Shown here one piece after another: positions 18,001 to 30,000 of a stretch of 32,000 bases of DNA (its first letter is position 1; each line of letters opens with the position of its first letter). Origin of the DNA: Ureaplasma parvum serovar 3 str. ATCC 27815 (lineage in GTDB: Bacteria > Bacillota_I > Bacilli_A > Mycoplasmatales > Mycoplasmoidaceae). The position numbers are program-made. Location: the NCBI RefSeq assembly GCF_000019345.1, contig NC_010503.1:480001-512000 (forward strand), given 5' to 3'.

Positions 18001-21000
18001 AAAAAATTTACGCAATCGATGTTGGTGTTGACTTATTACACCCTAGTTTAAAGAAAAGTTATAAAATTATTAATTATGAAAAAACTAATGTTAAAAATTT
18101 AGATAAATCTTATTTTTTAGAAGATTTAGATTTAATTGTTGGTGATTTATCTTTCATTTCTTTAGAGCAAATTTTTCCAATAATTAAAAAAATTTCATCC
18201 CCTAAAACTTTGCTTTTATTGTTGATAAAACCCCAGTTTGAATTAGGAAAGGACGTAGCTAGTAAATATAAAGGTCTAATTCAAAATCAAAAATTACAAC
18301 AATTAGCAATAAACAAAATAATCAATTTAGCAAAAAATTATGACTTTGAATGTAAACATTTAACTCCTACTGATATTTTTGATGAAAAAAAACAAAATCA
18401 AGAATATATGATATTTTTACAAAAGCATGAAAAATAATCATCAAAAAATCATCATGCATCTTGATATCGATGCTTTTTATGCTACTGTTAGTGAACTATT
18501 ACATCCTGAATATAAAAATTTTCCAATTGCTGTTGGTTCATTAAATTCACGCACAGGTATTATTTCTTCACCTAACTATTTAGCACGTTCTTATGGCGTT
18601 AAAGCTGCAATGCCTATCTTTTTAGCTAAAGAATTATGTCCAAATTTAATTATTTTACCTTCTGAACACAATATTTATCAATCTTACTCAAAACATTTTT
18701 TTCAAATCATTAATAAATATACAAATAAGATTGAAATAACTTCAATTGATGAATGCTTTATTGATGCAACAGATTTAGTTAAAAAATATCATAATAATAT
18801 CCGCTTGTTAGCAACAAAAATACAAAAAGAAATCAAAAACAAACTAAACCTTAGTATTTCAATTGGAATTTCATATAATAAAACAATTGCAAAAATGGCA
18901 ACGGAATTAAATAAACCTTCTGGTATATCAATTATTGATGAAAATAAAATTATTAATTTAATTTATGAATTAAATATCAATAAAATTCCCTATATTGGCG
19001 AAATAAAATCACAAGAATTATATGCGATTAACATTTTTAAAATTAAAGAATTAATTGCAACTGAAAATAAACAAAAAATTTCATTAGTTTTAGGTTCAAT
19101 ATATCAAAATTTAGTCAATGATTTAAAAGGTTTAAGTAAAATTAAAATAATTGATGAAGATATTTATAAAACAATTTCACATTCGAAAACATTTAACGAA
19201 GATTTGAATGATTTTTATGAAATTTCTAATGAAATGAACGATTTAATTTTAACTGTTACTAATCGATTAAAAAAATGTAATTTAATGACTAATAACATCA
19301 GTATTTATATTAAATATCCTAGTTTTAAAACAAAAATTAAGCAAAAACAATTAACTTATTACACTGATGATTATCAAACCATTTTTCTAGCAATTAAAAA
19401 CTTATTTAAAATAATGTATAAAGATGAAACAATACGTTTAATTGGTATCTCACTAAATAAATTAGTAAAAAAAGAAAATGTTAAAAAACAATTATTTTTA
19501 TTTGATTAATTGATTGTTTTTTAAAAATCTATTCCTTCAATTGTAATTTTTCGACCTCTTAAATTCTTATTTATAAAATGATGTTGAATTAAATAAGGTT
19601 CTATTTTTGTTTCAATTGTATATTGATCTAAACGTAAAATCTGTGCAATTGATTTTAAACCAATTTCATTATCTTGTCGATATAAAACATTTAGATAATT
19701 AATATCTTGTTCATCTAATCCAAACTCATAAATTTGAATTTTTTTAAAAATACTTTTAATATCATTAAACCCATTAATTTTAAAATCTACAACTCGTTTT
19801 AACAATCGATTTGCTAATCGTGGGATTCCTTTAGCATTATTAGCAATCAAATCAATTTCTTCTTCGTTTAAATCAAGAGGTTTTTTAAACTGTTTTATAA
19901 TTAATATGTATAAACACTTATTATTTGTTTATATTATTAAAATTTAAAGGAGCATATTGGTTTATGATTTATAAAGAAATTGTACGTAATATTATTAAAC
20001 ATCCATTAATTTTACCAGATGGAAAACACTATCATCTACACAAAATCTTAACTTCAAAAGATGAATTACGTAAAGGCGAAGTAACTTTAGTTGCAGAAAA
20101 TGGCAAAGAATATACAGTTGATTTATCTGCCTTTGTTGATCTATTAGTTGATGGTGATTGCATCTTTGATGATAACCACTCATTAGTTGCATTATATTTT
20201 GATGATGCAAAATAATTAATAATATAAAATAAAAAATATCTACTTTAGTTTTTGTGCTAAAGTAGATTTTATTTTTAAAATAAATATAATCACTAATTAT
20301 TTAGTAGACAAATAAGTTGATCATAAATAAAATTCACTAACACTAAAATCTGCTAATTCTTTAGCATCATCAATAATACCCATTTTTACTAAGTATTGTA
20401 AAAATTCGTTTTTTATATTTTGCATTCGGGTTTTTAATGATTCATTTTTAGTTTTTAATTGATTAATTTCTTCATTATTTTTATCTTTGTTAATACTAAT
20501 TTGTCATTCGTTTTCATATAACTGTTTTAATAAGTTTAAATAACGATCTTCATAGTGTGAATTTATAGGATTAGTTTCTATTAATTCATCTTTTTTAGCT
20601 TTAATGTAATCAGTAATATCATAATCTCGTCAAAGCATGTTAATAATACTAAAACGAATTTTATCATTCATTAATTTAGTATTAGATGTACTAATCGAAT
20701 AATATTTATTATCATATCAATATGCATTTACAAATAAATTGAACTTATTAAGTTGATCATTAATGTTTTCAAAAAATCGTTTTAATTCATTTTTTGTACT
20801 TGAATATTCTTTGTTATTTAAAAATGATTTTTCTAAAAAGATATTAAAATCTAATTTATTAGTTATTTCATAATTTTGATCGATTAAATTTTCTTGTTTT
20901 AAATACTTAATAATTAAATTTTTATTTTCATCATTGCTTTGATTAAGTTTTTTAAACGCTAAAAATAAAGTGTTGATTCTTGTTTTATCATATGTTTTTA

Positions 21001-27000: not shown

Positions 27001-30000
27001 AATTTTTTTACTTCAATATATAAATAATGATCTTTTTGATCATGTGTTTTTATTTTAAAATAAAATCAGGGTATGAATTACTTATTTGACCATCTTCATT
27101 AAAATATTGATATTTTAATCCATGAAAAACAGGATTTTTAGTCCAAAGTTCAACATTATTTTTAATTTTATCATTATCATTTGATAATGAAAGAAAACGA
27201 TTTGCAAATTTAGATTCAGTTGAAGAATCAAAATAGTGATTTTGTTCTTTAAGATCTTTATATGCATACTTATCACAAATGTTTAAATCTAACATGTTTT
27301 CACATTTTTTATATTTTTCAATAGGAATAAAAATTTCATTTTGATTAGGTAAATTTTTATTATTTTGTAATTTAAAAAGTAATTCATGATTATCTTTTTT
27401 CATTTGTTCTAATGAATTTTTATATAATTGTTCAAATTGATCAAGATATTTTTTGATAATAACATATCAATACATATTAATGCTTATGTCTAATTTTCAT
27501 CTTTTTTCTCACTCATTAAATTTTATTTCAAGAAAATTTATAATTTTTTTAGGGAATAGATGTTTGTATTTTCTTAATTGTTCAATAATATAAAGTTCAA
27601 GTTCAATTGAATTTTTAATTTTAGTATAAACACGTGTTTTGCCTTCAATTTGTGAAGTTTAACCTTCTAAGTATTGATTTTTTACAAAATTTTCTCGATA
27701 GTTAAGCAGGGCATTGAAAATTACTTTTTAAATACTTAAACATGCCTAACATTTCATTTTGATAAATTTAAATATTATAACTAGAGATAATTACTATTAT
27801 GAGAAGATAGGTAATAATAAACCTAAAAAACTTGAAAATCTACCATTTAATATACCTAATAATTGAATTTGAGTAAAACTAAATAACATATCCAATGTCA
27901 TAAGTGGATATTCTTTTAAGTCATCAAAGTATACTAGTTCAGGTATAAGAATAATAAGAATTTCTGATTTTGATAGTAAAGAAGTTGATAATAATGAACC
28001 TATTTTTTATGAATATAATGAAAAATTTAATTCTTACAAAATTGAAAATAACGATATTATTTTAGTCATGACTGGCGGTACAGTTGGAAAAAATATAATT
28101 ATAAAAAAAGCTAATGATTATTATTTAAATCAAAGAGTTGCTAGAATCAGAACATTTAATGTAAATTATAATTATATTTATTATTTAATAAATACTACTT
28201 ATATATAAGGATTAATAAACGATTCGAAAAACTCAACTAACGACAATATTTCATTAAAAGATATAAATAATTTATTAATACCATTGCCACCATTAGATGA
28301 ACAACAACGAATAGTTGACAAAATTAATCTATTAGAATTTTTTATTAAACAATATGATGAAATAGAACAAAAATTATCGAAGCTTGAAAATGAATTTCCA
28401 GAAAAGCTAAAAAAATCGGTTTTACAATATGCTATGCAAGGCAAATTAATTAAACAAGATCCAAATGATGATTCTATAAAAGATTTATTAAAACAAATTC
28501 ATAAAGAAAAACAAAAATTATACAAAGAGGGTAAACTTAAAAAGAAGGATTTAGAAGAATCTATAATTTATAAAAGTGATGATAAGTCGTATTATGAGAA
28601 TATAGGTAATAATGAGCCTAAAAAGCTTGAAAATCTACCATTTAATATAAATGTATAAAGATGAAACAATACGTTTAATTGGTATCTCACTAAATAAATT
28701 AGTAAAAAAAGAAAATGTTAAAAACAATTATTTTTATTTGATTAGTTGATTGTTTTTTAAAAAATCTATTCCTTCAATTGTAATTTTTCGACCTCTTAAA
28801 TTCTTATTTATAAAATGATGTTGAATTAAATAAGGTTCTATTTTTGTTTCAATTGTATATTGATCTAAACGTAAAATCTGTGCAATTGATTTTAAACCAA
28901 TTTCATTATCTTGTCGATATAAAACATTTAGATAATTAATATCTTGTTCATCTAATCCAAACTCATAAATTTGAATTTTTTTAAAAATATTTTTAATATC
29001 ATTAAACCCATTAATTTTAAAATCTACAACTCGTTTTAATAATCTATTTGCTAATCGTGGGATTCCTTTAGCATTATTAGCAATCAAATCAATTTCTTCT
29101 TCGTTTAAATCAATCTGAAAATGCATCTGATTATTCTTTAAAATAATTGCACTAATTTCTGATGGTTCATATTCATTTAAATGAAAGATGTGTCCGAAGC
29201 GTTCTTCTAAAGATTTTGGGATTTTTCCAAAAATTGTTGTTGCACCAATAAGTGTAAAATGAGGAATCTTTAACCTCGTCATTTTTGAATTAAAATCTTT
29301 ACCTATATTAATATCAATACAAAAATCTTCTAATACAGAATAAAGTGTTTCAAATGCACCTAAACCACAAGCGTGAATTTCATCAATAAAAACAACGTCA
29401 TTTTCTTTAATTAAAGATAATAAATTAATAATATCAATAGGTTTATTTAACAAGTTCCCTTGTGTTATGTGACAATTAACATTCATTTCATTAGCAATTA
29501 TAAGTGCTAATGTTGTTTTCCCTGTTCCTGATAATCCATGTAATAATGTATGATCAAAACTATTTTCTAATCGTTTACTAGCAGTTAAATAAACTTTTAA
29601 ATTGTTTTTTAATTGTTCTTTACCAATAAAATCTTTTAGATATTGTGGACGAAACTCATAATTAGTTTTCATGGCGCAATGAAATTTCTTTGATTGCAGA
29701 GCTTATAATTTCACTAATATCAATATCTTGTTGAGAATTAATTTTAACTTTAGTAATAGCATACTCAATATCTTTTTTAGTATATCCTAAATTTTCAAGA
29801 CCTATACTTAATTCTTTAGCTCAGTTATTTTTATCATTTACTTTATTTATGTATTTATAATTTAATTGATCACAAATCAAATTAGCATTTCGTTGGTTAA
29901 TTCCTTTAATTGTTATTAAATAATCTATATTCTTAGTAGCAATTGCATCAATAATTGTATCAATATCATATTTTAGAATATTAATAGCTGTTTTTGGGCC

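Follow-up and report, generated by a model that had tools for sequence, protein, structure and literature searches.

A decaying accessory block between duplicated dinB and ruvB gene ends in Ureaplasma parvum and its likely dependence on host homologous recombination

Background

In Ureaplasma parvum serovar 3 str. ATCC 27815, the convergent genes dinB (DNA polymerase IV) and ruvB are held apart by 8.8 kb of accessory sequence, and the stretch in which the two genes end stands on both sides of that cargo. The locus lies in a stretch of 32,000 nucleotides (NC_010503.1, positions 480,001 to 512,000; GC 23.8%), here called the window, to which all coordinates refer. In this paper we compare the two copies of the flanking repeat with each other and with the corresponding segment of island-free genomes, and we describe the cargo and its damage. 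The account that we favour, with a probability of about 75% for the whole, is that of a decaying accessory block at a duplicated dinB/ruvB junction, whose fate would be governed by host homologous recombination.

The insertion and the duplication of the 3' part of ruvB have been known since 2012. Paralanov et al. (BMC Microbiol 12:88, PMC3511179) described the same insertion in U. parvum serovars 1, 3 and 14, with host sequence repeated on both sides and a short 3' part of ruvB duplicated, and listed eight genes in it, namely six for hypothetical proteins, one for a subtilase-domain protein and one for a type I S subunit, some of them with U. urealyticum orthologues. The insert sizes given are 11,822 and 12,293 bp, the serovar 1 version being about 471 bp longer than those of serovars 3 and 14; these sizes are about 2.6 kb above the 8,773-bp cargo plus 464-bp repeat measured here. 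A 2007 microarray study (Momynaliev et al.), as PMC3511179 cites it, found the insertion in some isolates of one serovar and not in others. This published basic picture is unchanged by our analysis. What we add to it is the exact unit of duplication, 465 bp long and including the dinB end and a 12-nt gene overlap, the rejection of a transposon as the agent, the decay of the cargo, and the presence of variants of the duplicated ruvB tail in the live ruvB of island-free strains.

Methods

Reading frames in the window make sense only with genetic code table 4, and open reading frame (ORF) calling with table 11 was discarded because it broke genes into fragments. The repeat copies were compared by MAFFT alignment and by a search for direct and inverted repeats, and domains were called on the window ORFs with Pfam and NCBIfam profiles.

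Occupied and empty loci were collected by exact-protein look-ups with the RuvB, DinB and other proteins of the window, which matched U. parvum genomes such as ABER01000001, CP021987-CP021991 and CP086127, and L-numbers denote the contigs returned. The left and right copies of the repeat are called R_L and R_R. Island-free contigs were grouped by the length of their RuvB reading frame in amino acids into 312-type and 304-type empties. L041 is the finished genome AP014584.1 (SV3F4 type), L039 is CP021987.1, and L035 is an island-free metagenome contig of ERZ27276140; L024 is U. urealyticum and L025 is U. urealyticum JBBEVC01.

Gene ends duplicated on either side of the cargo

A single direct repeat of 464 nt flanks the cargo, its copies lying 9237 nt apart from start to start (Table 1). 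Between R_L and R_R there are four substitutions (19509 A/G, 19753 C/T, 19803 C/T and 19808 G/T) and two one-base indels (A6/A5 at ~19483 and T6A5/T6A6 at ~19522), a MAFFT result that matches exactly the count in an earlier note on this DNA. That note had the right copy in its proper place and the left copy one base off, at 19414..19877 instead of 19413-19876. The identity of the copies, 98.7% over 464 nt, far exceeds chance, even at 24% GC.

Each copy completes one gene and carries the severed end of the other, as the earlier note had read it and as the table 4 ORFs and Pfam domains bear out: R_L finishes an intact dinB and leaves a headless ruvB tail, and R_R finishes an intact ruvB and leaves a dinB tail. 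The last 97 nt of dinB fall inside R_L, and the DinB of the window is found as an identical protein in 14 contigs. The ruvB tail is carried in the annotation of ATCC 700970 as AAF30850.1 (109 aa).

Set against the empty allele, in which the segment is 465 nt long, all six differences between the copies sit in the half that is non-functional in the copy concerned. R_L differs from it by G19509A, which changes the dinB stop codon from TAG to TAA, and by T19753C and T19803C, with G19808 kept. The 1-nt deletion in R_L at ~19522 makes the ruvB frame stop 8 codons early and results in the 11-nt spacer that the earlier note had placed between dinB and ruvB. This spacer exists in R_L only; in R_R and in the empty allele dinB and ruvB have 12 nt in common. 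The sole change of R_R relative to the empty allele is the A6 to A5 frameshift in its dinB tail.

Table 1. Features of the dinB/ruvB locus in the window (positions from the first nucleotide of the window).
Feature	Position	Strand	Basis
dinB (DNA polymerase IV, 360 aa), intact	18427..19509	+	Pfam IMS, IMS_C, E 1e-49
R_L: functional dinB 3' end and ruvB pseudo-tail	19413..19876		alignment, repeat search
Headless ruvB 3' tail, RuvB residues ~196 to end, 8 codons short	19521..19876	-	ORF and alignment
Cargo, 8773 nt, missing from empty-site alleles	19877..28649		alignment to empty contigs
83-aa ORF, UreE N-terminal domain-like	19965..20215	+	NCBIfam UreE, E 7.5e-4
499-aa predicted lipoprotein without family match	20297..21796	-	Pfam, NCBIfam
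S8 peptidase C-terminal fragment (450 aa)	21744..23096	-	Pfam Peptidase_S8, profile positions 80-274 only
S8 peptidase N-terminal fragment (416 aa; signal peptide and N-domain)	23050..24300	-	comparison with L029
628-aa predicted lipoprotein without family match	24640..26526	-	Pfam, NCBIfam
Nuclease gene remnant, frameshifted, res-like by motif only	26800..27658	-	six-frame translation
Truncated hsdS, target recognition domain 1 and central conserved region only	27759..28658	+	Pfam Methylase_S
R_R: dinB pseudo-tail (A6 to A5 frameshift) and functional ruvB 3' end	28650..29113		alignment
ruvB, intact, 312 aa	28734..29672	-	Pfam RuvB_N, AAA_lid_4, RuvB_C
ruvA	29662..30258	-	gene calls; Pfam HHH_5, RuvA_C in related loci

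Occupied and empty alleles among strains

The occupied structure is shared by at least eight independent genomes (CP021987-CP021991, CP086127, ABER01000001 and JBBJCJ01), and most occupied genomes show the same six copy-specific differences. The earlier note had proposed a check for an assembly artefact, in which the repeat would have been falsely duplicated. With at least eight independent assemblies, finished chromosomes included, and copies that differ at six fixed positions, the probability of such an artefact is negligible.

The simple dinB/ruvB junction of an empty site, also called for by the earlier note, occurs in U. parvum contigs and in U. urealyticum L024. The island-free U. parvum contigs (L003, L005, L007, L008, L010, L019, L020, L037, L040, L041 and others) have a single copy of the repeat, and in L003, L005, L007, L008, L010, L019, L020 and L037 dinB and ruvB lie side by side and converge, with a 12-nt overlap, an arrangement that the empty locus of L024 shares. 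The flanks of empty alleles are nearly identical to those of the window: L003 shows a single mismatch over 7.4 kb on the left side and another over 2.9 kb on the right. The structure is thus a real, strain-variable accessory insertion.

The empty state is most likely ancestral, judging from the sequences compared, because U. urealyticum is also empty, with overlapping genes. The opposite view, that the island was present at the root of U. parvum and that all empty sites are secondary deletions, draws on the plausibility of excision over the repeat, for which L035 is an example, and on the many empties that bear pseudo-tail variants; we consider it improbable in view of the U. urealyticum arrangement and of the 312-type empties, which have A6, G19509 and A19522, the state of the outgroup. 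That combination is found in neither repeat copy, and for this reason we also rejected the idea that the 312-type empties are chimeras produced in assembling an occupied genome.

The haplotype of the left flank changes at the island. In the window, CP021988, CP021989, CP021991 and CP086127 it is that of the 312-type empties, and in CP021990, CP021987 and the serovar-1-like assemblies it is that of the 304-type empties.

Content and decay of the cargo

The cargo is free of recognisable mobility genes. Pfam and NCBIfam searches of every cargo ORF returned no integrase, transposase or recombinase domain, a search of the whole 32-kb window returned no transfer RNA (tRNA) gene, and inverted matches were limited to low-complexity AT-rich sequence, with none at 19877/28649. 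There is no short att core repeat, the flanking repeat being the 464-bp gene-end segment itself. Phage and plasmid collections gave no blastn match to the cargo, and neither a second copy nor a related element. These domain searches, together with the empty alleles, uphold the earlier description of the block as an accessory insertion that lacks integrase, transposase and tRNA. The comparison of GC profiles suggested in the same note brought no separation, the cargo (0.19-0.23) being indistinguishable from its flanks.

These results bear on the origin of the repeat. Transposon target-site duplications are short, far under 464-465 bp. The presence of host sequence on either side of the insert is compatible with the reading of Paralanov et al. 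2012, insertion of a transposon with target-site duplication, but the size of the duplication, the lack of a transposase or integrase domain and of terminal inverted repeats, the absence of a related element from the phage and plasmid collections, and a right end that falls inside a truncated hsdS and at no element terminus make that reading very unlikely.

Of the genes listed in Table 1, the first in the cargo, the 83-aa ORF, is 24% identical to the UreE of the window (BLASTP, E 5e-6), has an AAAGGAG ribosome-binding site upstream and is followed by a hairpin with a T-run at ~20239-20276. It would represent a stand-alone, diverged paralogue of the UreE N-terminal domain about 6 kb from the urease operon, which lies at 10795-16146 on the minus strand. 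A 51-bp deletion (window 20226-20276) in L013, L015, L016 and L030 removes the hairpin, and an 888-bp deletion (window 20302-21189) in L042 shortens the neighbouring gene for the 499-aa lipoprotein. Neither lipoprotein matches a Pfam or NCBIfam family.

What the earlier note had listed as two genes, a secreted protein and an S8 protease, are the halves of one S8 peptidase (subtilase) gene parted by a 470-bp deletion; its entries for decayed res and hsdS genes stood. L029 contains an 801-aa S8 ORF (15730-18135) with 470 bp extra at window ~23083, the deletion joint, and these 470 bp code for the catalytic Asp (VGILEVDG) and His (DNHANTVAS) motifs. The C-terminal fragment of the window keeps the Ser and oxyanion-Asn region, and the gene is catalytically dead in the window strain because the sequence encoding Asp and His is lost. 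The L029 copy itself is interrupted by a nonsense codon at position 92 and frameshifted in its C-terminal part, and no intact copy was among those seen.

The res-like remnant has a PD-(D/E)xK-like motif (YPDFILK ... YLYIEVK) divided over two frames and, like the lipoproteins, no Pfam or NCBIfam match. The hsdS gene is cut exactly at the junction of cargo and R_R, its stop codon being supplied from within R_R, and it contains an internal repeat, D3. It is further interrupted in the window strain by an in-frame TAA at 28206-28208, which is CAA in L012, L015, L016 and L028 (uninterrupted 299 aa). Full-length HsdS relatives are about 520 aa long and at most ~56% identical. With the S8, hsdS and res-like genes all damaged, the cargo is decaying; among occupied genomes it is ~99.2-99.97% identical.

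Relatives of the S8 protein are confined to the U. parvum copies and one U. urealyticum paralogue, 43-46% identical. The latter (L025, 8511-12872) lies elsewhere, upstream of rpsF-ssb-rpsR-rplI-dnaB, and the ORFs beside it match no part of the cargo, the island lipoproteins included. The one close HsdS relative that was checked belongs to an ordinary hsdR-hsdM-hsdS locus with an integrase, in an unrelated metagenome-assembled genome. A source locus of the cargo was not found in the databases searched.

Exchange between the pseudo-tail and live ruvB

Variants that mark the dead ruvB tail recur in live ruvB genes of strains that lack the island. A19509 and the deletion at 19522 are present in L022, L023, L026, L027, L035, L040 and L041, where together they give a RuvB frame of 304 aa, and C19803 is present in the ruvB of L022, L023 and L035. 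Three variants, C19753, T19706 and the frameshift +T19738, are common to R_L of CP021987.1 and the ruvB of the empty contig L035. In L035 these three and C19803, all of them R_L markers, are joined to native ruvB, which the +T19738 breaks. Decay in situ as the only source of the tail substitutions in R_L was rejected, three of the five tail variants recurring in live ruvB alleles. Because tail variants are shared with island-free ruvB and left-flank haplotypes switch at the island, sequence appears to have moved between pseudo-tail and live ruvB, and between chromosomal backgrounds, by homologous recombination, whether through excision or through replacement of a flank.

The 304-aa frame is a complete protein (P0001) only in L022/L023. 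In L026, L027 and L041 a 1-nt deletion at the equivalent of 29642, 30 nt into ruvB, reduces the ORF to 242 aa, and the Walker A motif is lost.

The two copies may also have exchanged sequence within a chromosome. R_L is identical to the strain's own R_R in L029, L030 and L034, including the A5 frameshift of dinB at ~19483, so that DinB becomes a 380-aa protein with an altered C-terminus, and L033 and L042 have partial conversion-like patterns. Gene conversion between the copies is possible in L029, L030 and L034. The identity of the copies in L029 and L030 was downgraded as proof of it, since collapse of a short-read consensus looks alike.

Discussion

In the account that we favour, a foreign or accessory block of 8.8 kb would have come to lie at the convergent dinB/ruvB junction with a 465-bp stretch duplicated on either side. 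The duplication would keep both dinB and ruvB intact, and each copy would also bear a dead remnant of the opposite gene. Recombination between the two copies or inside them, or in flanking DNA when strains exchange chromosomal segments, would remove the island, carry it into other backgrounds, or trade alleles between live ruvB genes and the dead ruvB tail.

The left junction falls within the codon space of ruvB and the right junction within hsdS. Most likely, we infer, the founding event combined one homologous with one illegitimate join, the latter being the right join inside hsdS, or else was a Campbell-type integration of a circle that contained the 465-bp segment. These two routes taken singly are equally doubtful.

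For the Campbell-type route, a non-replicating circle made up of the 465-bp dinB/ruvB segment and the cargo would have undergone a single crossover with the chromosome, as the earlier note had proposed. The layout of gene, repeat, cargo, repeat and gene is the product to be expected, with both flanking genes intact, and so far the proposal fits. The window has flanks of the 312-type and a pseudo-tail of the other allele class, as expected had the crossover fallen within the repeat's first 96 nt (19414-19509), but the same allele pattern is equally given by mutation of the pseudo-tail followed by export through excision. Besides, a prior molecule is required in which both cargo ends were already joined to the repeat ends, and no circle, replicon or donor was found; right-flank markers of the 304-type empties, moreover, recur in occupied strains that have a 312-type R_R. 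The integration that the earlier note envisaged is in these respects not demonstrated, and the alternative of two joins fits equally.

In that alternative, foreign DNA would first have abutted ruvB at 19876/19877, and ruvB would then have been restored from a sister or other chromosome by a join homologous on the ruvB side, with an illegitimate hsdS-dinB join at 19413, as in homology-facilitated illegitimate recombination (HFIR). The cut in the middle of hsdS exactly at the junction, where full-length relatives reach about 520 aa, speaks for it, as do the weak microhomology ATTTAAnATA at the hsdS/dinB joint and the position of the most intact cargo, that with the 801-aa S8 ORF, in chromosomes with a left flank continuous with the allele class of the pseudo-tail. 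U. parvum also tolerates disruption of ruvB, to judge from the frameshifts in L026, L027, L041 and L035, and the gene evidently seems dispensable or decaying in some lineages of the species. On the other hand, no intermediate was found in which the cargo sits in a broken ruvB with no second repeat copy, and a duplication would need two chromosome copies. Where HFIR has been described, as in the naturally transformable Acinetobacter and Streptococcus pneumoniae, its usual outcome is loss of recipient DNA, not a duplication.

Two directions of the exchange between tail and gene, as we infer them, are possible. The island may have formed or resided in a 304-type chromosome, the right side or the flanks being replaced later. 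Alternatively, the variants may have originated in the dead tail and reached island-free chromosomes through excision between R_L and R_R; this second direction is favoured by the 312-type right copy of every occupied genome and by the right-flank markers 29045G, 29213G, 30196A and 30986T that L026-type empties share with occupied strains. We tentatively suggest, as somewhat less probable than its negation, that the dead ruvB tail is a mutational reservoir from which changes return to live ruvB when the island is deleted. The 304-aa RuvB allele of island-free strains, the finished genome SV3F4 among them, in which G19509A and the 1-nt deletion un-overlap dinB and ruvB, and the frameshift of L035 would then be scars of excision, and possibly the 380-aa DinB, if real, a scar of gene conversion. 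If the tail is such a reservoir, the island-free state of those 304-type lineages is secondary.

Several points weigh against the favoured account of a block turned over by host recombination. In the databases searched there was no circular form, no donor locus and no hsdS from before the truncation. The microhomology at the right junction amounts to 9 of 12 nt with an offset of one base, which is weak in such AT-rich DNA. Conversion-like patterns are confined to short-read and metagenome assemblies, with none in finished genomes, and collapse of the repeat consensus can mimic conversion. The clearest candidate for excision, L035, is a metagenome contig, and the flow of alleles, as excision or as import, is not polarisable from these data; of the earlier prediction that homologous excision would restore a simple dinB/ruvB junction, it is exchange across the repeat that the shared variants and L035 back, and not its direction.

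If the favoured account holds, the locus would be a natural example of how a minimal genome may gain, keep and lose surface and restriction-modification genes by host homologous recombination alone. Duplicated overlapping gene ends would allow an insertion between overlapping convergent genes in which neither is killed. In Ureaplasma typing, the presence of the island and the 3' allele of ruvB would have to be treated as recombination-prone markers, and the subtilase gene, at times named a virulence candidate, is catalytically dead in the window strain.

Comparison with known systems

The ruvB insertion of Paralanov et al. is the same locus, with the same cargo and the same duplication of ruvB, and the additional 470 bp of L029 match their 471 bp. 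It was called transposon-like there, whereas we find nothing transposon-like in it, and the duplication also includes the 3' end of dinB.

With Campbell-type integration, as of suicide plasmids, the locus shares direct repeats that flank the insert, reversibility, and two intact genes, the latter because the segment holds 3' ends only. It differs in the lack of any known vector, replicon or circular form, and a Campbell-type reading would have to account for a natural circle with exactly this segment. The likeness to HFIR consists in the lack of mobility genes and in one junction within host homology and another, with microhomology, at an arbitrary point in hsdS; cases of HFIR combine insertion with deletion, in contrast to the 465-bp duplication here, and the process is not known from Ureaplasma.

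Finally, chromosomal transfer in Mycoplasma, which yields mosaic genomes (PMC4251992, PMC6819513), would explain the reshuffling of flanks and island among U. parvum backgrounds by homologous recombination; such transfer was described in Mycoplasma agalactiae and M. bovis.

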